NCBI GenBank assembly: GCA_048882485.1
Contig: JBHLRP010000077.1
Span: 1-11,204 of the forward strand
DNA length: 11,204 bases
From: Candidatus Thorarchaeota archaeon
GTDB taxonomy: Archaea; Asgardarchaeota; Thorarchaeia; Thorarchaeales; Thorarchaeaceae
Direction: 5' to 3'
Shown here: positions 1-11,204 of the stretch, in pieces
Position numbering within the stretch: the first letter of the stretch is position 1
How the letters are laid out: each line of letters begins with the position of its first letter
The notes under the pieces: model-generated
Databases searched by the model: none
What the model saw: the letters and a program-made list of their open reading frames with translations, nothing else
Told to the model about the DNA's origin: nothing
Made by a program: the position numbers and the translations under genes

Positions 1-432
1 GGATTCAGGCTTGGGTATGCTATCGCGGATTCTGATATCATCAAAAGGATGGCGGCTATTCAGTATCGACAGGTGACTTGTGTACCAGAATTCATCCAGC
101 ACGCTGGAATCGCTGCACTGGATTGCGAGGACGATGTTTCACGGAATGCATCAATAATCGAATCGCGCCTGAAGACTGCTAGTAGGCTCCTTAGGCCCTT
201 CCCTCTCACCTTCACTGAGTCCGAAGGAGGTTTCTACATATTTCTCCGTATGGCTGACGAATCAATGAGCGGGTTAGAGTTTGCGGACCGATTACTCTCA
301 GAGAAAGGCGTCTGTCTTCAGCCTGGGGTAATATATGGACACGAGTTTTCCTCATACTTCAGAATATCAGTCTGCACTTCCGACGATAGTCTTGTCGAGG
401 CAATAACACGCATCGGGGAGGTCTTGGAGTGA
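1..432 (+). CDS. PLP-dependent aminotransferase class I/II (aspartate/aromatic aminotransferase-like), 5'-truncated
   Basis: Frame is open from base 1 (GFRLGYAIADSDIIKRM...), so the track start at 49 is internal. GFRLGY matches the G(W/F)R(L/I)G motif after the PLP lysine. GGFYIF, PG..YG and YFRIS (carboxylate-binding Arg) are typical of fold type I. Adjacent to tyrA. Confidence 0.88.
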   Translation, partial: GFRLGYAIADSDIIKRMAAIQYRQVTCVPEFIQHAGIAALDCEDDVSRNASIIESRLKTASRLLRPFPLTFTESEGGFYIFLRMADESMSGLEFADRLLSEKGVCLQPGVIYGHEFSSYFRISVCTSDDSLVEAITRIGEVLE

Positions 433-1313
433 GAATTGCCATCATCGGTGCAGCTGGACAGATGGGGATGTGGCTCATCAATCACTTCGTTTCCCAGGGC
501 CATATCTTGGTGGGATCAGACTCTCGCAGTGATGAGCTTCGCGAGTTGGCTGAAACACATGACCTAATCCTTGCCAGCAGCAACTCGGCAGCTGTGAAAG
601 ATGCGGACGTCGTAGTAGTTTCTGTTCCAGTTACAAAGACCTCGGAAGTGATTCAGAATATAGCACCACAGATGAAGCCAGACGCAGTACTATGCGAGAT
701 ATCATCAGTGAAAGGCAAGATTCCCATGACTCTTCAAGAAGCGTCCAAAAAGGGAATTCGGCCACTGTGCATTCATCCGATGTTTGGTCCTGGTACACGC
801 TCTCTCAAGAAGAGAATCATACTGATACCAATTGTGAATCTGGCTGTTGAGGATGGTATTGTAGAAATCCTGTTTCCCGATTCTGAGATTATAGTGGCAG
901 ACCAAGAGGAACATGATAAAATCATCGCCCTCACGATATCACTGCCATATTTCGTTAATATGATCCTCGCCTCTGTATTAGCCGACGAGGATGTCAATCT
1001 GCTGGAGCGACTCGGTGGAACGACCTTCACTATGCAGCTCATGTTAACGGCGAGCATTATGTCGCAGTCCCACACCCTCCATTCGACTATGCAGTTTGAG
1101 AACAAGCACGTGCTTAATTTGCTACAGAAACTCCAGCTTAGAATGAGGGAGAGCATTGCCAGTCTTTCAGATATCGACTTTGGCAGATTCGAACAGATAT
1201 TCTTGGAAGCTAAAAACGGGCTTGGCGAGGGAGTTGACCTGGGGCAGAAATACAATGAGATGTACACGGTACTTGAATCCTTGAGAGGAGAGAATGGGAT
1301 GGTGAAGCAGTGA
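429..1313 (+). CDS. tyrA: Prephenate/arogenate dehydrogenase (TyrA family)
   Basis: Rossmann motif IIGAAGQMG, VSVP, EISSVK, IHPMFGP (catalytic His), EEHD motif. GTG start overlaps the upstream TGA (GTGA 429-432). Confidence 0.9.
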   Translation: MRIAIIGAAGQMGMWLINHFVSQGHILVGSDSRSDELRELAETHDLILASSNSAAVKDADVVVVSVPVTKTSEVIQNIAPQMKPDAVLCEISSVKGKIPMTLQEASKKGIRPLCIHPMFGPGTRSLKKRIILIPIVNLAVEDGIVEILFPDSEIIVADQEEHDKIIALTISLPYFVNMILASVLADEDVNLLERLGGTTFTMQLMLTASIMSQSHTLHSTMQFENKHVLNLLQKLQLRMRESIASLSDIDFGRFEQIFLEAKNGLGEGVDLGQKYNEMYTVLESLRGENGMVKQ

Positions 1314-2395
1314 TGAAGGTCTCATTCGTCGTCAAGACAAACAGCAGAGAATATCCTGTGTGCGTTGGTCAGAATATTCTCCCCCAAGTCGGTGATTCTG
1401 TATCGGAAACTGCAGATCGGATCATCATTGTTACGGACGAGGGAGTTTTCGATATCTACCTCGACATGATTACTAAGGGTCTAAGCAATTCGGGGGTCAA
1501 CGCAGTCACAAAGGTCCTTCCTGCAGGAGAAAACATCAAGTCGCTGGCTATGGCAGAGAATCTATACAAGTTTCTTCTCGAAAATCAGGCCTCACGGTCT
1601 GACACTATTCTTGCTCTTGGTGGTGGAGTCATTGGTGATCTTGCCGGTTTTGTCGCATCGACATACAAGAGAGGGATGGGTCTGATACAGGCCCCAACCA
1701 CTCTACTCAGCCAGGTCGATTCGGCATTGGGAGGGAAGACTGGAGTTAACTTCCCTGTCGGAAAAAACCTGGTCGGGACCTTTTATCAGCCAAACGCCGT
1801 AGTGGCAGATGTTGCAGTCCTCACAACTCTCAGTGATGATGCTTTCATCTCAGGACTTGGGGAAGTTATCAAATATGGGGCAATCATGGACAAGGAATTG
1901 CTCAACATCCTCATGGACAATAGATATGAGATTCTTGCAAGAGATCTAAACATTCTGTCCCGGATTGTCAAACGATGTTTGAGAAACAAGGCACGTGTGG
2001 TGGAGGAAGATGAGAGGGAGGAGAAACGCAGGAGAGAGGTTCTCAATTTTGGCCATACCATAGGCCATGCCATTGAAACCTGTTCTAAGCACAAAGTACC
2101 TCATGGCTATGCAGTAGCAATTGGGATGGTTGAGGAGGCTCGTTTCGCTATGAGGGAAGGTCATCTTGATGAGCAATCCCTGGATTCACTGGTTTCTATT
2201 TTGGAGGCTTTTGGCCTCCCCACCAGAATTCCTGCAGACGTGGATATGACTGAATTTGGAGATGTTATCCTGCAAGACAAGAAGATTCGACAAGGTCTGC
2301 TTATACTCCCAATTCTAATTGAACTCGGTAGCACTGAACTAAGGACTGTGGATGCGCCACGCGCTCTAATCCCCAAAAGAGGAGGAGATAGATAA
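1313..2395 (+). CDS. aroB: 3-dehydroquinate synthase (classical AroB)
   Basis: GE.IK, LGGGVIGDLAGFVASTYKRG, PTTLLSQVDSALGGKTGVN, KNLVGTFYQP, EVIKYG, LNFGHTIGHAIE, HGYAVAIGM, DKK. Start is ATG 1313 (TGATG overlap, GGTGA at 1301-1305) or GTG 1310. Confidence 0.96.
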   Translation: MKVSFVVKTNSREYPVCVGQNILPQVGDSVSETADRIIIVTDEGVFDIYLDMITKGLSNSGVNAVTKVLPAGENIKSLAMAENLYKFLLENQASRSDTILALGGGVIGDLAGFVASTYKRGMGLIQAPTTLLSQVDSALGGKTGVNFPVGKNLVGTFYQPNAVVADVAVLTTLSDDAFISGLGEVIKYGAIMDKELLNILMDNRYEILARDLNILSRIVKRCLRNKARVVEEDEREEKRRREVLNFGHTIGHAIETCSKHKVPHGYAVAIGMVEEARFAMREGHLDEQSLDSLVSILEAFGLPTRIPADVDMTEFGDVILQDKKIRQGLLILPILIELGSTELRTVDAPRALIPKRGGDR

Positions 2396-3471
2396 TGTTA
2401 GTAGTAATGTACAAAGAAGCGACAGAAAAGCAAATACAGAAGGTTATCGACGTAATTGAAGAACTCGGATACACGGCAATCCCCAATCCTGGGGTAAGTC
2501 GAACCGTGATTAACATCACAGGAGAAGTGGACTTACTCGACTCAAGTAGGCTAGAGGGGCTTCCAGGAGTCATGAATCTCATTCTTGTAACCAAGCCGTA
2601 TAAGCTGGCAGACATTGAGTCAAAACTGGAGGGGACGGTAATTGAGGTAGGCGATGTAGAGATTGGTGGGGGTCGCCCCATTGTTATCGCAGGCCCCTGC
2701 AGTGTCGAATCGAGGGAGCAGATTCTCAAGGCTGCTGTTGCAGTGAGAGAAGGTGGTGGAGATATGCTCCGGGGCGGTGCATTCAAACCTCGGACTTCCC
2801 CCTACTCCTTCCAGGGTCTTGGTGTGGAGGGTCTCAGACTTCTCGATGAGGCTCGCAAGGAGACAGGTCTCCCAGTAGTTTCCGAGGCTGTCGATGTTGA
2901 GAGTTTCCCCGCTGTGGAAGCCATGGTCGATGTCATCCAGATAGGCGCCAGGAATATGCAAAATTATTCCCTTCTAAAGCGCGCAGGACGAGCTAGAAAG
3001 CCTGTGTTGTTGAAGAGGGGGTTGTCTGCAACACTCTCTGAGTTGCTTGCTGCCGCTGAGTATATCATGGCAGAAGGGAATCATGACATAATTTTGTGTG
3101 AACGGGGTATCAGGACCTATAGCGATCACACACGCTTCACGCTTGACCTGAGTAGCATACCCGAACTACGAAGGCTCACGCATCTCCCACTGATTGTTGA
3201 CCCAAGCCATGCTGCAGGGAAAAGGGACATGGTTATTCCTCTGGCACGCGCTGGTCTTGCAGTTGGCTCGGATGGCATCATAATTGAGGTTCATCCGAAG
3301 CCCGAGGAAGCACTTGTGGATGGCCCACAGTCACTCACGCTTGATATGTTCCGTGAGTTCATGGAGAATCTTCCCAAGAATGGACTCTTGACACACAGCA
3401 CGAGACAGGTGAATAAGGGGGTCAATGACACCCCAGTAGCATCTTGGACACCAAGCGAATCCAATGAGTAG
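2395..3471 (+). CDS. aroF: DAHP synthase type I-beta with N-terminal ACT/ferredoxin-like regulatory domain
   Basis: IAGPCSVES, RGGAFKPRTSPYSFQG (KPR(T/S) is DAHPS-specific versus KANRS in KDO8PS), IGARNMQN, LLKRG, LCERGIR, DPSH. About 70-aa N-terminal domain as in Thermotoga maritima AroF. AGGAGG at 2380-2385 and TAATG overlap. Confidence 0.95.
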   Translation: MLVVMYKEATEKQIQKVIDVIEELGYTAIPNPGVSRTVINITGEVDLLDSSRLEGLPGVMNLILVTKPYKLADIESKLEGTVIEVGDVEIGGGRPIVIAGPCSVESREQILKAAVAVREGGGDMLRGGAFKPRTSPYSFQGLGVEGLRLLDEARKETGLPVVSEAVDVESFPAVEAMVDVIQIGARNMQNYSLLKRAGRARKPVLLKRGLSATLSELLAAAEYIMAEGNHDIILCERGIRTYSDHTRFTLDLSSIPELRRLTHLPLIVDPSHAAGKRDMVIPLARAGLAVGSDGIIIEVHPKPEEALVDGPQSLTLDMFREFMENLPKNGLLTHSTRQVNKGVNDTPVASWTPSESNE

Positions 3472-3490
3472 GATGGAGTTGGGCGGTTGA

Positions 3491-4168
3491 ATGAAGAAGA
3501 TGCTATGCGTTTCGGTGACGGGGCGCTCCATTGAAGAATGCTCCAAGACCATAGCCTCGACTGATGCTGACTTAATAGAGCATAGAATGGACTTCATGAA
3601 TCGAATCCAGGGGCTAACTGCCATCTATGATGCAGCCAAGGTTCCAATTATCGCCACATGCAGAGCTCCACACGACGGAGGCCATTACAGCGGCAATGAA
3701 GAGAGCAGAATTGGATGTCTCATTGAAGCAATCTCGGCAGGAGCATCTTATGTTGACATTGAACTAGAAACGGATACAACTCTGATGAGCATGATTCGTG
3801 AGAACGCTGATGAAGCCAACTCCAAACTGATTGTGTCAAAGCACTATGTTGATTCGACCCCTAGTGTTTCAGAATTACAAAGTGTACTCGACAGACTCGT
3901 TATTGCAGGGGCAGACATCATGAAGCTAGTCACTACTGCAAACACCATGGATGATTGCGGAAGAATATTGCACCTCTATCACACAAACTGTAAACCAGCG
4001 CGCCCAATGATAGCTTTCGCGATGGGAAACCTTGGCAGGTTCACCAGACTTACTGCGCTATATCTGGGCGCTCCTTTCATGTATGTGTCTCAGGATCTTG
4101 GTGAGAAAGCTGCTCCGAGCCAAATCACTTTGTCTCAGATGAGAGCCCTCTTGGAGGTGCTAGAGTGA
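3491..4168 (+). CDS. aroD: Type I 3-dehydroquinate dehydratase
   Basis: E.R.D (EHRMD), IATCR...GG, YVDIE, S.H, DIMK (Schiff-base Lys), AMGNLG..TR, APSQ (canonical APGQ). Confidence 0.93.
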   Translation: MKKMLCVSVTGRSIEECSKTIASTDADLIEHRMDFMNRIQGLTAIYDAAKVPIIATCRAPHDGGHYSGNEESRIGCLIEAISAGASYVDIELETDTTLMSMIRENADEANSKLIVSKHYVDSTPSVSELQSVLDRLVIAGADIMKLVTTANTMDDCGRILHLYHTNCKPARPMIAFAMGNLGRFTRLTALYLGAPFMYVSQDLGEKAAPSQITLSQMRALLEVLE

Positions 4169-5013
4169 AACGAGTCGTCATTGTTGGATATCCTTTGGGT
4201 CACTCGTTGAGCCCAGTCATGCATAATGCAGCGCTGACTGAACTTGGTCTAGATGATGAGTTCAAGTATGAGGCTATGCCCCTATCCAGCAATGAACTTC
4301 GTGGATTCGTGGAGTCCATTCGAAGGCGTGAGATTGAGGGTGCCAACATCACAATTCCTCACAAGACAAAGGTGATGACGTATCTATCAACCATATCTTC
4401 GGAGGGATTAGCTGTGGGCGCAGTGAATACACTTCACCGAAAAGATGGCTTAGTGATTGGGAGTAACACAGACATCCAGGGATTTACTGAAGCCATTAGA
4501 GAAAATGGGCTAGATCCTCAAGGCATCAATGCTGTTATTTTGGGTGCAGGAGGTGCGGCTAGGTCAGTGGCATATGGTTTGACTGAAGCTGGAGTAGCAA
4601 GATTGGGGATCTTCAATCGCACGGTTGATGCGGCGAATCGGTTGGCATCAGTGATGCCTCGTGGGAGGCTATTGGAGGTTCGTTCAGGAGCTAAGCCGAC
4701 AAAGGATGACCTTGAGCACTCCGATTTGCTTGTCAATTGCACTCCAGTCGGAATGGCTGGTTATTCACCTGAGGAATCACCTATAGAGTCATCTTTGCTA
4801 TCTAGCAGCGTAGTCGTGATGGATCTAGTATACAATCCTCTTCGCACGAAGCTACTAATGGAAGCTGATGAGGCGGGATGCAAAACAATTGACGGAGTTG
4901 GAATGCTTGTTCATCAGGGGGCCATAGCATTTCAGCTATGGACCGGGAAGAAAGCACCTGTTGAGGTCATGAAGGACACAGTGCTACGTGCATTAGTGGG
5001 GAACGATCGATGA
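4165..5013 (+). CDS. aroE: Shikimate dehydrogenase
   Basis: GYPLGHSLSPVMHN, GANITIPHK, GAVNT, NTD, GAGGAAR, NRT (NADP-type), NCTPVGM, DLVYNP, MLVHQG. GTGA overlap with aroD. Confidence 0.96.
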   Translation: MKRVVIVGYPLGHSLSPVMHNAALTELGLDDEFKYEAMPLSSNELRGFVESIRRREIEGANITIPHKTKVMTYLSTISSEGLAVGAVNTLHRKDGLVIGSNTDIQGFTEAIRENGLDPQGINAVILGAGGAARSVAYGLTEAGVARLGIFNRTVDAANRLASVMPRGRLLEVRSGAKPTKDDLEHSDLLVNCTPVGMAGYSPEESPIESSLLSSSVVVMDLVYNPLRTKLLMEADEAGCKTIDGVGMLVHQGAIAFQLWTGKKAPVEVMKDTVLRALVGNDR

Positions 5014-5534
5014 AGAAAGCCCAGAGAAGCATCAGTCTGATCGGTTTCATGGGTACTGGTAAGACAACTATAGGAAGAGCCCTAGCCAGTTCGCTAAAGC
5101 GAGATTTCATTGATACTGACCCACTCATTGAGAGCCGTGTGGGCAAGTCCATCTTTCGTGTCTTCTCCGAAGATGGAGAGGCCTTCTTTCGTGACATTGA
5201 AGCCCAGATCGTAAAAGAAGTGTATGGAATCAGATCTTCCGTTGTGGCACTGGGAGGTGGTGCAATTCTCAACCCGGAAATCGCCACTTTGGTTAGGGAA
5301 AACTCAGCAGTTGTGCTTCTTAGATCATCTGTTGAAACCATTATCTCAAGGACATCTTCCAATAGGCTACGCCCACTCCTCAATGTGACAGCTGAAGACC
5401 TCAAACAGAGAGTCACTACGCTTCTTACAGAAAGAGAGGCTGCATATTCTGATGCAATGGATATCGAGATTCATACTGACTCAATGAATGTTGGTGAGGC
5501 TGTATCTGAGATAGTCCGGAGGTTGGAACTCTGA
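5010..5534 (+). CDS. aroK: Shikimate kinase, bacterial AroK/AroL (NMP-kinase fold) type
   Basis: Walker A GFMGTGKTT, DTD, GE..FR..E, GGG, RPLL; 174 aa. ATGA overlap with aroE. Confidence 0.95.
   Translation: MKKAQRSISLIGFMGTGKTTIGRALASSLKRDFIDTDPLIESRVGKSIFRVFSEDGEAFFRDIEAQIVKEVYGIRSSVVALGGGAILNPEIATLVRENSAVVLLRSSVETIISRTSSNRLRPLLNVTAEDLKQRVTTLLTEREAAYSDAMDIEIHTDSMNVGEAVSEIVRRLEL
5518..5523 (+). promoter_or_regulatory. Shine-Dalgarno site (GGAGGT) for aroA
   Basis: GGAGGT lies 7 nt upstream of the in-frame CTG at 5531. There is no comparable site ahead of GTG 5570. Confidence 0.7.
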
Positions 5535-6820
5535 GGGTCATAGTATATAGATCCACCATCGATGGTACTGTGGATGCACCACCCTCCAAGAGTTACACGC
5601 ATAGAGCTATAATCTGCGGCCTGCTCTCTAAAGGGACAACGAAACTTAGGAATGCGCTATTCAGCGATGATACTAGGACCACACTGAGAATATCCGAGAT
5701 GATGGGCGCCGAGGTTCGTCAAGAAGATGATATTGAAATTACGGGTCCAGATGAGCTAAAGGCACCTGCCTTTGAGATGAACTGTCATGGTTCTGGCACG
5801 ACACTTAGAATATTTACAGCATTATCTGCACTCACATCAGGAAAATGTGTGCTTACAGGGAATGAATCATTACGGAGAAGACCCATCGGAGACCTCCTTG
5901 ACGGTCTGCGTCAACTGGATGTAGATGCCAGATCCCTAGGCGGCAATGGTTTACCTCCCGTGGAGATACGCGGGCAGGGTATCAGAGGGGGCATAGTCAG
6001 AATCCGTGGTGATGTGAGTTCTCAGTATGTAACAGGCCTTCTTTTTGCATGCTCAAAAGCCAATAAGGCCTCAAAGATTGAGCTCACGACGGAGTTAGAG
6101 TCTCGACCATATGTTGAGATGACACTAAATGTCATGAGCCAATTCGGGGCTGAAGCAGAGCCTTCCAATGATTGGAGAAAATTCAGTATACCAGGAAACC
6201 AAGATTTTCAGTCACAAGATTACACAATTGAGGGGGACTTCTCGTCAGCTGCATTTCTAATGGCAGCAGGTGCTCTCACGGGAAGTGTGAAGGTGAAAGG
6301 ACTCCGAATGGACTCAATACAAGGCGATGCCGCTGCGGTCAGTCTTCTGAAATCAATGGGCTTAGAAATCATTTCTGGCAGGGATAATTTCAAAGTCAGC
6401 CACAACGAGATGCAAGCCATTGAGATTGATGCATCAGACATCCCTGACCTAGTGCCAGTGATGACCGTATTGGCTACTCAGGCTAATGGCATCACGAAGA
6501 TATACAATGCAGGACGGCTAAGGCTCAAAGAGAGTGATAGGCTTTCAACAGCATCTCAGGAACTGCGGAAAATGGGTGCAGAAATCACAGAATCGAGAGA
6601 TGGTCTGACTATTAGGGGTCCTACCGCTCTTAGTGGCGCAGTTCTTAACTCCCATAAAGACCATCGCATAGCCATGGCAGGCGTGATAGCAGGACTTGTT
6701 GCAGAGGGTGAAACCGTGATTGAGGACATCAGGTGTGTCACAAAGAGCTATCCTGGTTTCGTAAAGGACATGCAATCTATTGGTGCTGAAATAGAATTAG
6801 TTTCAGGAGGAATTACATGA
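5531..6820 (+). CDS. aroA: EPSP synthase (3-phosphoshikimate 1-carboxyvinyltransferase)
   Basis: PPSKS, SGTTLR, L..RP, VSSQY, SRPYVEMT, EGDFSSA, PDL, RLKESDR, DHRIAM, KSYP. Start moved from GTG 5570 to CTG 5531 (see findings); the identity is firm and the start is inferred. Confidence 0.95.
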   Translation: MRVIVYRSTIDGTVDAPPSKSYTHRAIICGLLSKGTTKLRNALFSDDTRTTLRISEMMGAEVRQEDDIEITGPDELKAPAFEMNCHGSGTTLRIFTALSALTSGKCVLTGNESLRRRPIGDLLDGLRQLDVDARSLGGNGLPPVEIRGQGIRGGIVRIRGDVSSQYVTGLLFACSKANKASKIELTTELESRPYVEMTLNVMSQFGAEAEPSNDWRKFSIPGNQDFQSQDYTIEGDFSSAAFLMAAGALTGSVKVKGLRMDSIQGDAAAVSLLKSMGLEIISGRDNFKVSHNEMQAIEIDASDIPDLVPVMTVLATQANGITKIYNAGRLRLKESDRLSTASQELRKMGAEITESRDGLTIRGPTALSGAVLNSHKDHRIAMAGVIAGLVAEGETVIEDIRCVTKSYPGFVKDMQSIGAEIELVSGGIT

Positions 6821-7899
6821 CGTTCATATTTGGAAAGGACTTCAAGATACAAGTATTTGGAGAGAGTCATGGGGAAGGAATTGGAGCGGTTATTGAGGGT
6901 TGCCCACCAGGACTCGAAATTGACCAGTCTAGGATTCAGCTCGAGCTGAACAGACGCCGCCCAGGAACAGGATCTTTGGTTTCTCCACGGTCTGAACCTG
7001 ATACCTTCGAGATCAGAAGTGGCGTCTTTAAAGGAAAGACTACAGGTGCGCCCATATTGATGACAATTTCCAACAAAGATGTCGACTCATCATCATATGA
7101 GGAGATCAAAGACACGCCTCGTCCAGGCCATGCAGACTACACTGCTCGAGTTAAGTATAGGGGCTTCAACGACTATCGCGGTGGAGGAATCTTCTCTGGA
7201 CGACTCACTGCCGCCATGGTGATGGCTGGGAGTATTGCTCAGCAAATCCTGAACCAAAAAGGCATCGAGGTCCTTGCTCATGTGATACAGATTGGACCTG
7301 AACGTGTTGGGCAAGAAGTTTCCGATGACGAGCTGCGGTCAAATGTCTATTCCAATCCTGTTCGATGTGCTAATAGAGAATCAGCAGAAAGGATGGAAGC
7401 TGTGATAAAGGATGTGAAGTCTGAAGGTGACTCCATTGGTGGTGTCATCGAATGCCGAATCATTGGAGTTCCTGCAGGAGTCGGGGAACCAATCTTTGAC
7501 TCTGTAGAGAGTGTTCTTAGTCACGCCATGTTCAGCATTCCAGGAGTAAAGGGGGTCGAGTTTGGTTCTGGCTTCAAGGGGGTTTCGATGCGCGGCTCTG
7601 AAAACAATGATACACTCCTCATAGTTGATGAGAAGGTGGGATGGAGCAAGAATGATGCTGGTGGAATTCTTGGAGGAATCACTAATGGCGCTCCGGTGTT
7701 ATTTAGAGTCGGTTTCAAACCAACATCAACGATCGCAAAGGACCAACGTACAATAGACCTCGCCAAAATGGAAGAGGTCCAGCTTCAAGCAAGAGGCCGA
7801 CATGACCCTTGCATTGTACCCCGAGCAGTACCTGTTGCTGTTGGACTTGCGGCAATCGCAATGGTTGACCTGCTTAAAAGAAACTCAGCAACAATCTAG
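6817..7899 (+). CDS. aroC: Chorismate synthase
   Basis: FGESHG, RRRPG, R.E.D, TTGAP, PRPGHAD, RGGG..SGR.T, GGILGGIT, FKPTSTI, GRHDPC. AGGAGG at 6805-6810 and ATGA overlap. Confidence 0.97.
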   Translation: MTFIFGKDFKIQVFGESHGEGIGAVIEGCPPGLEIDQSRIQLELNRRRPGTGSLVSPRSEPDTFEIRSGVFKGKTTGAPILMTISNKDVDSSSYEEIKDTPRPGHADYTARVKYRGFNDYRGGGIFSGRLTAAMVMAGSIAQQILNQKGIEVLAHVIQIGPERVGQEVSDDELRSNVYSNPVRCANRESAERMEAVIKDVKSEGDSIGGVIECRIIGVPAGVGEPIFDSVESVLSHAMFSIPGVKGVEFGSGFKGVSMRGSENNDTLLIVDEKVGWSKNDAGGILGGITNGAPVLFRVGFKPTSTIAKDQRTIDLAKMEEVQLQARGRHDPCIVPRAVPVAVGLAAIAMVDLLKRNSATI

Positions 7900-7914
7900 T
7901 TGATGTACACAAGT

Positions 7915-7934
7915 GAGTACGCCTGAGCATACTC
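7915..7934. repeat. Imperfect palindrome GAGTACGC-ctga-GCATACTC
   Basis: 8-bp arms with 7/8 complementarity and a 4-nt spacer, 15 nt after the aroC stop and just upstream of the TATA-like box. Function unknown. Confidence 0.5.
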
Positions 7935-7943
7935 GGAAACATC

Positions 7944-7962
7944 GGGAAATCGCTATATATTA
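7944..7962 (+). promoter_or_regulatory. Putative archaeal promoter (BRE-like GGGAAA plus TATA-like TATATATTA)
   Basis: Purine-rich GGGAAA at 7944-7949 followed by TATATATTA at 7954-7962, the clearest TATA-like run in the intergenic region. Standard spacing would put the start site near 7984. Confidence 0.5.
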
Positions 7963-8003
7963 CATTTTACGCCACTTGAATTGCCAAACGAAGTCATGTA
8001 GTA

Positions 8004-8151
8004 AGAGAAAGAAATCAAGAGAAACGGCAATTCCGCGTGAGTGGTCCATCCATAGAGACCGCTATGTTGACATGCCAAGGTCTGTCATATTTTAGACCTC
8101 TCGAAGCAACTACTATTCGTGTGGCACCCGTCTTTTTTGAGATTCTTCTCT
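8004..8151 (+). ncRNA. Candidate structured leader RNA or sRNA upstream of the homocysteine module (family unassigned)
   Basis: Hand-derived nested helices: 8004-8027/8128-8151, 8035-8046/8057-8067, 8073-8077/8122-8126, 8078-8084/8093-8099, 8102-8105/8116-8119. G-U pairs favour the + strand. No energy or covariation calculation was done. Confidence 0.4.
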
Positions 8152-8199
8152 GAGTATTTAGCTGCATGGCAGGGATAAATTGGCTTGGAGGCTAAGAAA

Positions 8200-9555
8200 A
8201 TGAAACAAGAGAAGACTATACGAGAGATAAACGAGAGAATTAGAGATGGATCTGTTCGAGTTGTGACTGGCTCTGAGATGACCGAGATAGTTGCAGAGAT
8301 TGGAGCAGACAAAGCAGTACATGAAGTGGATGTAGTCACCACTGGTACATTTGGTGCTATGTGTTCATCAGGGATCTGGATGAATTTCGGCCATGCTGAG
8401 CCTCCAATAAGAATGACACGCGTATGGTTGAATGATGTCGAGGCATATGCAGGCGTTTCAGCAGTAGATGCATACATCGGAGCCACACAACTGTCAGAGT
8501 CACTAGGAATGGAGTATGGTGGAGGCCATGTGATTGAGGACCTAGTCCGCGGGAGGTCTGTCCATTTGCGCGCTGAGTCATATGGTACTGACTGCTATCC
8601 AAGAAAGAGTCTCTCAGTTGAGATTCGAGCGGATGAGATGAATCAAGCTATAATGTCTAACCCGCGTGTCGGAGCTTTTGGAGCTGTGGCTACAAATTCG
8701 TCTCAGAAGACGATTTACTCATATATGGGGAAACTGCTGCCTGACTTTGGCAATGCAACCTTCTCTGGGGCTGGAGAAATCTCTCCAATTCGAAATGACC
8801 CACAATTCCGCACAATAGGTGTCGGAACGCGAATATTCCTTGGAGGAGCTGAGGGTTATGTCACCGGGAGCGGGACGCAACACAGTCCTAGTACCGGCCA
8901 AGGGACTCTGAGGGTCGAGGGTGATTTGAGAGAGATGTCCTCGGACTTCATCAAGGGTTGTATCTTCACAAGATATGGGGTATCACTTTACGTTGGTCTT
9001 GGGGTGCCTATTCCGGTTCTCAACGAAGAGGTTGCCAAGAGTACAGGAGTTTCTGATCAGGAGATTGTGACCAAAGTCATTGATTATAGCGTGCCCTCAC
9101 GTGCCAGACCCAAACTGCGGAAGGTTTCCTACTCGGATCTGAAGTCCGGTTCAATAGAGATAGATGGACGAGAAGTTAGGACTGCACCCATTTCAAGCTT
9201 CAGAGTAGCAAAAACTGTGGCGAACGAACTGAGGCAATGGATTGCGTCGGGTAAGTTCTTCCTAGCAAGTCCTGACAGATTGTTGTCATCTTCTGAAACC
9301 TATCGCCATATGGTGCAGAGAGAGTTGACGGCCGCCACTTCGGCAACACGTGCGAAGTTCCAACCCGAGAAGGATCAGTTTGTCACTCTGAACACGGATA
9401 GATGTGTAGAATGCGGTCTCTGTATTTCATTCTGTGAACAGGATGTCTTCGCATTTGACGATGAATTGACATTCACATTCAGTCCAGAACTCTGTTCTGA
9501 GTGTGAGCTGTGTGGTGATGTCTGCCCACAGAGAGCAATCTATCTTAAGAGCTGA
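8200..9555 (+). CDS. L-aspartate semialdehyde sulfurtransferase-like homocysteine biosynthesis protein (DUF39/COG1900, MA1821/MJ0100 family) fused to a C-terminal 2x[4Fe-4S] ferredoxin
   Basis: KTI.EINERI, VDVVTTGTFGAMCSSG (Cys55), AVDAYIGAT, YGGGHVIEDL, GTDCYPR (Cys132), YMG, NDP..RTIGVGTRIFLGG, GTQH. C-terminal CVECGLCISFC and CSECELCGDVCP. ATG 8200 is preferred over TTG 8185 because GGAGG sits at 8187-8191. Confidence 0.9.
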   Translation: MKQEKTIREINERIRDGSVRVVTGSEMTEIVAEIGADKAVHEVDVVTTGTFGAMCSSGIWMNFGHAEPPIRMTRVWLNDVEAYAGVSAVDAYIGATQLSESLGMEYGGGHVIEDLVRGRSVHLRAESYGTDCYPRKSLSVEIRADEMNQAIMSNPRVGAFGAVATNSSQKTIYSYMGKLLPDFGNATFSGAGEISPIRNDPQFRTIGVGTRIFLGGAEGYVTGSGTQHSPSTGQGTLRVEGDLREMSSDFIKGCIFTRYGVSLYVGLGVPIPVLNEEVAKSTGVSDQEIVTKVIDYSVPSRARPKLRKVSYSDLKSGSIEIDGREVRTAPISSFRVAKTVANELRQWIASGKFFLASPDRLLSSSETYRHMVQRELTAATSATRAKFQPEKDQFVTLNTDRCVECGLCISFCEQDVFAFDDELTFTFSPELCSECELCGDVCPQRAIYLKS

Positions 9556-9566
9556 GGTGGTGTTGC

Positions 9567-10280
9567 TTGTCACGACATTATCTGAGAATCGGTGAAACAA
9601 TTGCCAATGTGGTAGCAGACGAGGAGTTCTTCGAAATAGCTGAGGCTGCTGTAAAGCAAGCAAGGAAGGACATCCTTCAGCACATCAGATTCGATCCTCA
9701 TTTCCAGTTCAGCATGGAGCCAATATCGGTTCCTGAACATTCTCCTGACATCGTCAAGAGGATGGCTGCAGCTAGTACGCGAGTTGGAGTGGGACCGATG
9801 GCAGCAGTAGCTGGTGCAATCGCACAATATGCTGTCGAAGTTATGGTAGCTAGGGGCGCAACTCACATTCTGTTTGACAACGGTGGCGACATCGCCATGT
9901 ACCTAGATCGGCCGGCTGTAGTTGGCATCTACTCCGGAGAAAGTGGTGCTGACAATCTAGGAATACGATACACTACTTTGGGTGAACTGCAGGGCGTCTG
10001 TACGTCCTCTGCATCTATTGGTCACTCCCTCAGCTTAGGAAGAACGGATGCATCCATTGTCTTCTCAAAAGATGTGGCCCTTGCTGACGCCGCGGCCACA
10101 GCTCTTGGTAATTCTATCACAGAGGAGGACAAGGACCAAGTGTCACACGCATTGAGGACTGCAATGATTGAAGACATTGATGGAGCCATAGTCATCATTG
10201 GTGATACAATCGGGGCAGCAGGAGAGATTCCTCAGATTGTCCGAGCCAATGTCGACTTCAATCTCATCGCTAGGGGGTAG
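9567..10280 (+). CDS. UPF0280/COG2122 ApbE-like protein (MA1715 family, sulfide assimilation partner)
   Basis: GPMAAVAGAIA, DNGGDI, GVCTSSASIGHSLSLG, ADAAAT; 237 aa with no lipoprotein signal. TTG start with GAGGTG at 9554-9559. Typical neighbour of COG1900. Confidence 0.88.
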   Translation: MSRHYLRIGETIANVVADEEFFEIAEAAVKQARKDILQHIRFDPHFQFSMEPISVPEHSPDIVKRMAAASTRVGVGPMAAVAGAIAQYAVEVMVARGATHILFDNGGDIAMYLDRPAVVGIYSGESGADNLGIRYTTLGELQGVCTSSASIGHSLSLGRTDASIVFSKDVALADAAATALGNSITEEDKDQVSHALRTAMIEDIDGAIVIIGDTIGAAGEIPQIVRANVDFNLIARG

Positions 10281-10291
10281 AAGGTGAAAAG

Positions 10292-11204
10292 ATGAGTAAG
10301 CTGAAAGCTTGTGTCATGGGAGCAACTGGCATCGTGGGGCAACACTTTGTGAGAGCCCTAGACGATCACCCCTACTTTGAACTGAGTCTAGTCACAGCGT
10401 CAGAGCGTTCTGAAGGGGTGGAATATGGTGAAATTACTGATTGGATAGTTTCTGAGAGAGTTCCTGATGCAGCTCGACAATTGCAAGTCAACAGGACAGA
10501 CGCAGAAGCAATCGCTTCTAACGGGGTAGATCTCGTCTTCAGTGCGCTCCCCTCTGGGCGCGCGTATGACATTGAGGCGGAGTTGGCTTCTCGTGGTCTA
10601 CCAGTGTTCTCAAATGCCGGCGCCCATAGGATGAGTGCCCACGTGCCAATCCTCATTCCGGAGGTGAATCCTGAGCACTTGGGTTTGATAGATTCTCAGG
10701 AATACGATGGTGGCTACATAGTCACAAACTCAAACTGCTCAGTTTCAGGTCTTGTATTTGGGCTGAAACCACTTATGCCGTTTGTAATCAAGACAGTGAC
10801 TGTTTCGACTTATCAGGCACTATCGGGTGCTGGACGGAATGGTGTCGCATCGATTGACATCCAAGGAAATGTGATTCCATTTATTGCAAACGAAGAGGAT
10901 AAGATGCGAATCGAGGGACAAAAGATTCTGGGCACATTTCAAGATGGCTTAGTGAAGCCTGCAGACTTCAAGGTCTATGCGAGCTGTGCTAGAGTCCCTG
11001 TGATGGACGGTCATCTAGAGAGTGTGGTAGTGGAGTTTGATGCTCCGATTGATGTCGATGAAGCATCGCAGATCCTTTCCGTGTTCAGTGGGCCACCACA
11101 GGAGCTCAGACTGCCAACAGCGCCTGAGAAACCTATCACCCTACTTGAGGAACAAGATCGACCACAGCCGAGGCGTGACATCTCGGTGACAGAGGCCGGC
11201 AAAG
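10292..11204 (+). CDS. asd: Aspartate-semialdehyde dehydrogenase, archaeal/eukaryotic type, 3'-truncated (not in ORF track)
   Basis: Hand translation MSKLKACVMGATGIVGQHFVRALDDHPYFE..., with ASERS, VFSALP, SNA..HRM...PILIPEVN, TNSNCS (catalytic Cys 10736-10738), YQALSGAG, EEDKM, CARVPVMDGH (His 11012-11014) and DRPQPR. AGGTGA at 10282-10287; frame open to the window end. Confidence 0.95.
   Translation, partial: MSKLKACVMGATGIVGQHFVRALDDHPYFELSLVTASERSEGVEYGEITDWIVSERVPDAARQLQVNRTDAEAIASNGVDLVFSALPSGRAYDIEAELASRGLPVFSNAGAHRMSAHVPILIPEVNPEHLGLIDSQEYDGGYIVTNSNCSVSGLVFGLKPLMPFVIKTVTVSTYQALSGAGRNGVASIDIQGNVIPFIANEEDKMRIEGQKILGTFQDGLVKPADFKVYASCARVPVMDGHLESVVVEFDAPIDVDEASQILSVFSGPPQELRLPTAPEKPITLLEEQDRPQPRRDISVTEAGK

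Follow-up and report, generated by a model that had tools for sequence, protein, structure and literature searches.

A predicted 5′ leader with complementary ends precedes the homocysteine operon of a Thorarchaeial archaeon and its relatives

SAM-I (RF00162) and the other S-adenosylmethionine (SAM) and S-adenosylhomocysteine (SAH) riboswitches are structured leaders of 100–200 nucleotides (nt) upstream of bacterial sulfur amino-acid operons, with a long closing helix that places its 3′ strand close to the ribosome-binding site. Across phyla, the aptamers of known riboswitches retain their core. Bacterial 5′-terminal stabilising stem-loops, as in the ompA, ermC and aprE leaders, shield the 5′ end of the mRNA from end-dependent RNases. 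To our knowledge, few cis-regulatory RNAs and no T-box leaders have been described in archaea; most archaeal leaders are short or absent, while the methyltransferase operons of methanogens have long regulatory 5′ untranslated regions (UTRs). The met operon of S. aureus, a methionine-pathway operon, reportedly combines transcription-factor control with a long structured T-box leader (PMC7913692). The present analysis concerns the predicted 5′ leader of a homocysteine operon (HcyBio-ferredoxin, a COG2122-like gene and asd) in a Candidatus Thorarchaeota archaeon, contained in a stretch of 11,204 nt (contig JBHLRP010000077.1 of assembly GCA_048882485.1, positions 1 to 11,204; hereafter the window), together with its counterparts in related genomes. 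A first-pass annotation had proposed a riboswitch- or attenuator-like RNA at 8004–8151. The leader shows no sign of a SAM riboswitch and is not a member of a known riboswitch class; it appears instead to be a real, functional-looking and lineage-specific structured leader, the defining trait of which is a covarying helix between its 5′ end and the stretch before the Shine–Dalgarno (SD) site, downstream of a conserved operator and promoter.

The sample comprised 18 related Thorarchaeial loci, 17 with an intact HcyBio gene and one with a remnant (L011). They were gathered by way of the protein, because a DNA search with the 300-nt gap upstream of HcyBio found only a second copy of the operon in the same assembly (contig C35, 29778–33079; L028, L037), which is 88.9% identical to window positions 7902–11204 and 81% identical in the gap; no DNA-level match to the gap was found in 40 relatives. 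A leader beginning with TGCCA is present at 18 of 18 loci, with 185–303 nt from TGCCA to the start codon, and a strong AGGAGG lies about 8 nt 5′ of the start codon at 18 of the 19 loci listed. Past about 12 nt, alignment of the leaders between lineages fails, and seven lineages have no 7- or 8-mer (up to one mismatch) in common beyond shuffle expectation.

The two ends of the leader are complementary. In the window, the arms S1 and S3 (Table 1) form a duplex of −34.2 kcal/mol, compared with −16.9 ± 3.1 kcal/mol for shuffles (z −5.7; 0 of 500), and this duplex beats all 373 other 57-nt windows of the contig that were tested; the arms of the C35 copy give −25.7 kcal/mol (z −2.8). The closing and outer helices drawn in the first-pass annotation are the inner half of this longer panhandle. 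The minimum-energy fold is a rod, pairing the first ~45 nt with the last ~45 nt before the SD site, in 13 of the 15 leaders drawn.

Support for the panhandle across lineages comes mainly from an alignment-free test, in which the first 40 nt of each leader were paired with the last 40 nt before the SD site. Cognate arms gave a mean of −24.2 kcal/mol and non-cognate arms −14.9 kcal/mol. For seven lineage representatives the cognate sum was −178.5 kcal/mol, and the best of all 1854 derangements reached −119.8 kcal/mol; z values for arm pairing against shuffles ran from −2.4 to −6.6 in the individual lineages. A covariance model (CM) built from one lineage finds full-length leaders of two others (E 1e-5 to 1e-2), and model R1 aligns other lineages only via the terminal helix and the end motifs, skipping 66–88 interior positions. 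In a CM-fitted alignment of eight leaders double changes are seen in 37 of 60 pairs, which 0 of 500 shuffles match; fitting the alignment to the structure biases this count, and the alignment-free test carries the main weight. The first-pass annotation had proposed a long structured leader in the gap, as a candidate cis-regulatory RNA. The closing long-range pairing is kept by compensatory change across the relatives in both the alignment-free and the CM tests, and given this change such a role is likely.

A cis-acting, post-transcriptional role for the leader, in protection of the mRNA 5′ end and/or in gating ribosome access, possibly via two folds and by a mechanism that we infer, is probable. 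Transcription would start at about G7983 from a TATA promoter, with an upstream tandem-repeat operator that is probably bound by a transcription factor and would also control a Tes-like radical-SAM gene. The purine-rich first ~45 nt would pair with the pyrimidine-rich last ~57 nt, giving a long panhandle with interruptions, which would bury the 5′ terminus and stop 2 nt short of the SD site, and the leader may switch between this panhandle and a fold in which its 5′ end pairs with 8099–8126. Evolution seems to keep the panhandle and the length of the leader, not the sequence. From folding models and comparison we infer that the RNA would fold in this way in the cell, and that it may switch in response to a trigger. 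The leader fronts a sulfide-dependent homocysteine pathway used by anaerobes; should the leader gate translation or decay, it would reveal how the supply of methionine and SAM is controlled in these archaea, and would be a portable regulatory part. With an operator common to two gene classes, a predicted start and a comparatively supported helix, the locus is a concrete testable case.

Selection on the leaders was judged by comparison with fourfold-degenerate sites in the adjacent gene. In three lineages, the leaders have a within-lineage identity of 0.67–0.89 and these sites one of 0.30–0.60, pointing to purifying selection on the leaders within lineages. This excess tells against the view that the fold is functionless, whether as a by-product of purine and pyrimidine tracts or as the relic of an old inverted-repeat insertion, in a spacer that need only carry the promoter. 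The same holds for the lead of nearly 60 kcal/mol that cognate arms have over all 1854 derangements, and for two traits kept in 18 of 18 loci, the length of the leader and a 3′ arm that lies at the SD site. A miniature inverted-repeat transposable element, or another mobile inverted repeat, was considered and rejected: the only other copy in the assembly is the C35 operon, and the leaders in G023, G024, G363, G373 and G377 are single-copy. A functionless fold is disfavoured, and we regard it as very improbable, even though its helices are of low complexity, the leaders of the window and the C35 copy diverge at a neutral-like rate, and the inner fold of that copy is no better than shuffles.

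Besides the bias of the CM pair count, several further results weigh against a cis-acting role built on the panhandle. The start site, and with it the existence of the leader, are predictions. The first-pass annotation had cautioned that its closing helix joins low-complexity sequences, rightly, as the arms are purine and pyrimidine tracts that pair promiscuously. Covariation within lineages is modest (at most 5 pairs with double changes). Between the window and C35, identity is 0.79 in the leader and 0.81 at fourfold-degenerate sites, which is about neutral divergence in a pair too close for an informative selection comparison, and the C35 equivalent of 8004–8151 is no better than shuffles (z +0.66). 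No conserved anti-SD sequence was found in the leaders, the best candidates varying in position and not outperforming shuffles (z mostly 0 to +1.6). Cognate combinations of the 3′ arm and the start region pair no better than non-cognate ones (p ~0.3). Blocking the 5′ arm had a strong predicted effect on SD accessibility in some lineages; in others the effect was absent or reversed, and in the window there was none. When the first bases of the coding sequence are included, the minimum-energy fold of the window is no longer the panhandle but one that pairs S1 with the internal segment S2 (−67.3 against −62.4).

This alternative fold joins TGGCA (8122–8126) to TGCCA (7982–7986), TTCGT to ACGAA, ACTAC to GTAGT and CTCT to AGAG; folded with the coding bases, it contains the two inner hairpins of the first-pass annotation. 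The S1:S2 duplex has an energy of −20.6 (z −1.65) in the window and −25.8 (z −3.8) in the C35 copy, and a segment analogous to S2 exists in most lineages. In the derangement test the cognate sum for S1 with the internal segment (−149.1) narrowly beats every derangement (best −147.1), with z values from −3.4 to +0.9 per lineage. RNAalifold picks the S1:S2 fold in two lineages, within-lineage RNAalifold results and pair counts are compatible with both folds, and the two are close in energy in the window and in several other lineages. A bistable archaeal riboregulator can be envisaged, in which the 5′ end would toggle between its internal and its SD-adjacent partner on a sulfur-, methionine- or SAM-related signal, in concert with the operator-bound factor. 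Such a signal might be a small molecule, sensed by a domain that evolves fast and is specific to each lineage, or else a dedicated RNA-binding protein. This reading is distinctly unlikely; if true, the leader would be the first riboregulator described in Asgard archaea and a new kind of archaeal riboregulator. Because a conserved consequence for translation did not emerge, the bistability, suggestive as it is, is a lead and not a finding.

Some resemblances between the 5′ arm and the beginning of the coding sequence were also seen. Positions 8008–8023 are 81% identical to the start region at 8198–8213, and 7996–8023, with an ATG–TAG followed by a purine run, resembles the true start region (direct repeats D2 and D3, 79–81% identical), as if the 5′ arm were a mimic of a translation start. 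Mini-ORFs (open reading frames) near the 5′ end are not conserved across lineages. A leader peptide, in a 29-codon frame from the ATG at 8064, was rejected: in C35 the ATG is lost, the frame is shifted and the changes, judged by eye, are mostly non-synonymous.

If the leader were a metabolite riboswitch, with an aptamer at 7982–8126 and a ligand (SAM, SAH, methionine, homocysteine or a sulfur compound) deciding the partner of the 5′ end, then its core might be expected to recur among the lineages. Several features of the locus invite this idea: the leader is long and structured, precedes a homocysteine operon, is under apparent purifying selection within lineages, and has two predicted, mutually exclusive partners for its 5′ end at similar energies in the window and several other lineages. 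The possible alternative pairings add to the likeness to SAM and SAH riboswitches, as do the size of the leader and its long closing helix near the ribosome-binding site. However, the interior carries no conserved nucleotides across the seven lineages, CMs transfer between lineages only via the terminal helix, and even loci with 85%-identical proteins have different interiors, so that a conserved ligand-binding core is not supported. A conserved expression platform was likewise not found in the tests for an anti-SD, a terminator or pairing of the 3′ arm with the start region. A metabolite riboswitch is accordingly given little credence.

Kinship with SAM-I, at which the first-pass annotation had hinted, or with any other known riboswitch or leader family was not borne out by cmscan searches against Rfam 15 with permissive filters. 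No relevant match was obtained at E ≤ 10 in the window (7700–8400) or at E ≤ 5 in 15 homologous loci, the 16 loci in all including no member of a known family. The sole matches were a viral pseudoknot (E 5.5) inside aroC and a microRNA model (E 2.3) outside the leader, neither of them relevant. The gathering threshold of SAM-I (RF00162) was not reached in the window or the 15 loci, and its defining set of four-way junction, P2 kink-turn (K-turn), pseudoknot and conserved core is absent from the window's leader; the first-pass annotation had already missed P2 and GUGC there. The models for SAM-II to SAM-VI, SAM/SAH, SAH, T-box and thermometer elements gave no Rfam match, and, in contrast to the S. 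aureus met leader, no specifier or T-box sequence is present. The words ATCAAGAG, GCAAC and GAT, noticed earlier for their order, do stand in the leader, but they are not conserved as a set in other lineages. The SD site lies just outside the panhandle, not sequestered within it as in a thermometer, and no terminator-like site (a hairpin followed by a U-run), as an attenuator would carry, was found on either strand of 7850–8260. Unlike the SAM and SAH riboswitches, then, this leader has an archaeal host and an interior that cannot be aligned between lineages, and a thermodynamically striking fold beside a methionine gene need not be a riboswitch.

The T6 run at 8132–8137, inside the 3′ arm, could serve as an archaeal termination signal. 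Together with the rod shape and paired ends that are typical of stable small RNAs, it would fit an independent non-coding RNA gene of ~150–200 nt transcribed from the conserved promoter, the operon having a separate start nearer the SD site. However, the stretch from the T-run to the SD site shows no second TATA-like promoter, T-runs are not conserved in position among the leaders, no Rfam match exists, and the 3′ arm always ends at the HcyBio SD whichever gene lies upstream. The remnant locus L011 (G022:C16, 1500–2010) keeps the operator, the TGCCA leader and the SD before a 79-amino-acid N-terminal remnant of HcyBio, followed by asd; here the leader appears to have outlived the enzyme gene, and it is still attached to what is left of the operon. 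A separate small RNA is hardly credible.

About 10 of the 15 drawn leaders begin to pair within the first 1–3 nt of TGCCA, which, given the predicted start, is the arrangement of a 5′-terminal protective stem, and it recalls the ompA, ermC and aprE stem-loops in that the first nucleotides of the transcript are paired. Here, however, the predicted partner lies ~150–200 nt downstream beside the SD site, the helix would close the whole leader, and leader length and interior are conserved within lineages. The main rival to a regulatory role builds on this likeness: a passive stability element, in which the panhandle merely hides the 5′ terminus from 5′-end-dependent decay, the SD site lies beside the helix, and all regulation is transcriptional, by way of the operator. 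The early pairing fits it, as do the 5′-terminal hairpin with which Tes-type leaders also open and the failure to find a conserved SD-sequestering element. A hairpin of ~10 bp at the 5′ end would suffice for such protection, though, which leaves the conserved leader of ~200 nt, the strong conservation of its interior within lineages and the second conserved partner of the 5′ end unexplained; we consider the passive element unlikely. The leader also shares with those of the methanogen methyltransferase operons an unusual length for archaea and a suspected post-transcriptional role. It has no sequence or family relationship to them, and differs in having comparative support for a long-range helix and a defined operator, and in being known from sequence alone. 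Literature searches returned nothing on a HcyBio leader, on Asgard 5′ UTRs or on Asgard cis-regulatory RNAs.

The promoter region, missed in the first-pass annotation, is conserved between lineages. Its consensus (tCATACTCkGAAACwTCkGGAAw, four bases, TATATA, ~21 variable bases, yTGCCA) holds at 15 of the 17 intact HcyBio loci, and the operator block is near-invariant in these and in remnant locus L011. The operator–TATA block lies 235–303 nt 5′ of the start codon in 16 of the 18 family loci (the 15 intact loci and L011); in the remaining two the promoters have diverged, yet a TGCCA-initiated long leader with complementary ends is kept. Archaeal promoter geometry puts the start at the G of TGCCA, and a start at G7983, with the resulting 217-nt leader, is predicted. 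This position fits the conservation pattern, because the spacer between TATA and TGCCA varies among the loci and conservation resumes at TGCCA in all leaders; the 215 nt estimated in the first-pass annotation are in good agreement. The geometry of the TATA box and its flanking motifs is strongly conserved among family loci, with a predicted start and a putative factor site. No sigma-70 promoter was found in 7850–8260. A palindrome, GAGTA-N9-TACTC at 7916–7934, overlaps the start of the operator; it occurs in the window and the C35 copy and not in other lineages.

The operator is not confined to HcyBio. In 86 family genomes its pattern occurs at 45 sites, against one for the reversed control pattern, and, two outlying one-mismatch matches (L206, L215) aside, each site stands before HcyBio or before a Tes-like radical-SAM gene. 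When the window's assembly was scanned with a weight matrix, three strong sites appeared, namely the two homocysteine operons and one before a 547-amino-acid radical-SAM protein that matches the tetraether lipid synthase Tes model NF045702 above its cut-off (628 bits). The operator–TATA block stands before this Tes-like gene both here and in at least 20 genomes of the family. Leaders of the Tes type are short, and they open with a conserved 5′ hairpin, GAATACCACC...GGTGG (ACCACC/GGTGGT). Homocysteine synthesis and a SAM-using lipid enzyme thus seem to share one regulator, and transcription is probably controlled by a protein factor bound at the operator. Because the same operator precedes the Tes-like gene, a shared DNA-binding factor would be the simplest route for control at the level of the pathway, and the conserved operator and promoter offer a protein-based route for the methionine- or SAM-type control that the first-pass annotation had ascribed to the RNA. 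Two divergent upstream genes checked as candidate regulators have no Pfam family. A scan of metagenomes with the operator pattern yielded mostly chance matches, with two of 120 genuine (L077, L083) among the matches listed. The Tes-like site of the window's assembly lies on contig C6 at ~6076–6108 on the minus strand (locus L073), and others are at loci L194–L222.

The helices of the first-pass annotation were examined by read-through and a scripted check, and every one of them is present where it had been drawn: the outer AGAGAA/TTCTCT (6/6 pairs), its GAA/TTC extension (3/3), the closing helix of 8015–8027 with 8128–8140 (12/13, G-U included), the bulged hairpin of 8035–8046 with 8057–8067 (11/11), TGCCA/TGGCA (5/5), AGGTCTG/TAGACCT (7/7) and, by eye, CGAA (8102–8105) with TTCG (8116–8119; 4/4). 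The region also folds better than shuffles, at −46.5 kcal/mol by RNAfold for 8004–8151 compared with −32.4 ± 3.7 kcal/mol (z −3.84; 0 of 200 dinucleotide shuffles), and it is the lowest of 89 tiled 148-nt windows of the contig (z −3.07 with 40 shuffles; next best −2.86, with coding windows reaching −2.9). The fold drawn by eye, scored without the CGAA/TTCG helix, has −36.6 kcal/mol and is ~10 kcal/mol worse than the minimum-energy fold, which keeps the outer helices and replaces the interior by a 13-bp long-range helix. The bulged hairpin is found in the two-domain fold and is absent from the leader-only minimum-energy fold, while the AGGTCTG/TAGACCT hairpin appears in the centroid and two-domain folds. 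In the C35 copy the closing helix goes from 12 to 9 of 13 pairs and the hairpins each lose one or two, with one-sided changes only; the three-way junction proposed earlier loses pairs there and its CGAA arm is deleted, although the two gaps are 81% identical. No bulge-helix-bulge splice, K-turn or C/D-box motif was seen by eye in the arms of the drawn helices.

Table 1. Positions of genes, promoter elements and leader segments in the window
Feature	Positions	Strand	Remarks
Upstream genes, in order: aminotransferase fragment, tyrA, aroB, DAHP synthase, aroD, aroE, aroK, aroA, aroC		+	
aroC	6817–7899	+	
Intergenic gap	7900–8199		300 nt, between aroC and HcyBio
Operator-like block CATACTCGGAAACATCGGGAA	7928–7948	+	Tandem TCGGRAA half-sites 7933–7939 and 7942–7948; directly upstream of TATA box
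TATA box TATATATT	7954–7961	+	Putative archaeal-type promoter, judged from its sequence; distance to operator and TGCCA fixed in aligned loci
TGCCA initiator-like motif	7982–7986	+	Predicted transcription start G7983, 29 nt after TATA start
Predicted 5′ leader of HcyBio operon	7983–8199	+	217 nt
S1, 5′ panhandle arm	7983–8027	+	Purine-rich; includes 5′ strands of the outer and closing helices drawn earlier
Bulged hairpin	8035–8067	+	GTGGTC/GACCGC core conserved; 9/11 pairs in C35 copy
AGGTCTG/TAGACCT hairpin	8078–8099	+	6/7 pairs in C35 copy; one-sided compatible changes TA>TG, GT>GC
S2, internal alternative partner of S1	8099–8126	+	Suggestive only
S3, 3′ panhandle arm	8128–8184	+	Pyrimidine-rich; ends 2 nt before SD; contains T6 run 8132–8137
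SD site GGAGG	8187–8191	+	
ATG start of HcyBio	8200–8202	+	Frame confirmed by Pfam
HcyBio (DUF39) enzyme fused to 2x[4Fe-4S] ferredoxin domain	8200–9555	+	PF01837 (457.6 bits) and Fer4 families
237-amino-acid protein	9567–10280	+	No Pfam hit; matches NCBIfam PRK04334-type hypothetical proteins
asd (aspartate-semialdehyde dehydrogenase)	10292–11203	+	PF01118, PF02774; runs off window end

All genes of the window lie on the plus strand according to ORF calls and Pfam (Table 1). The first-pass annotation had taken the DNA to be archaeal, which is supported, the group being Candidatus Thorarchaeota, among the Asgard archaea; the homocysteine operon that it had read downstream of the gap was recovered by domain searches. 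Its statement that every other intergenic gap is under 20 nt holds with one exception, a gap of 35 nt by ORF calls (5534 to 5570). HcyBio also gives a weak match to the model for methanogenesis marker 16 (148 bits against a cut-off of 364), a family reportedly named a coenzyme M synthase in a 2025 paper, so that the assignment of HcyBio to homocysteine synthesis depends on its gene context (asd and the COG2122-like gene).

The 451-amino-acid DUF39-ferredoxin form was found in 14 other family genomes and in none of 16 genomes of the same genus. The best matches to aroC are in same-genus genomes (up to 78% amino acid identity), whereas those to HcyBio come from another genus (85%), and a search of 16 same-genus genomes gave no HcyBio gene and no operator; as the two genes have different closest genera, horizontal transfer of the whole cassette is suggested. 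At locus L047 (leader 1301–1503) the protein is 85% identical and the fourfold-degenerate sites 0.79 identical, but the leader is unalignable and of a different type, which would imply either that a recombination breakpoint lies close to the start codon or that the leader was replaced. The C35 copy sits downstream of a his operon, not directly after aroC, and could be a true duplication or the product of a bin that mixes two strains (contamination 5.8%). The similarity between the window and C35 begins 3 nt after the aroC stop codon, and the two aroC genes are only 67–69% identical.

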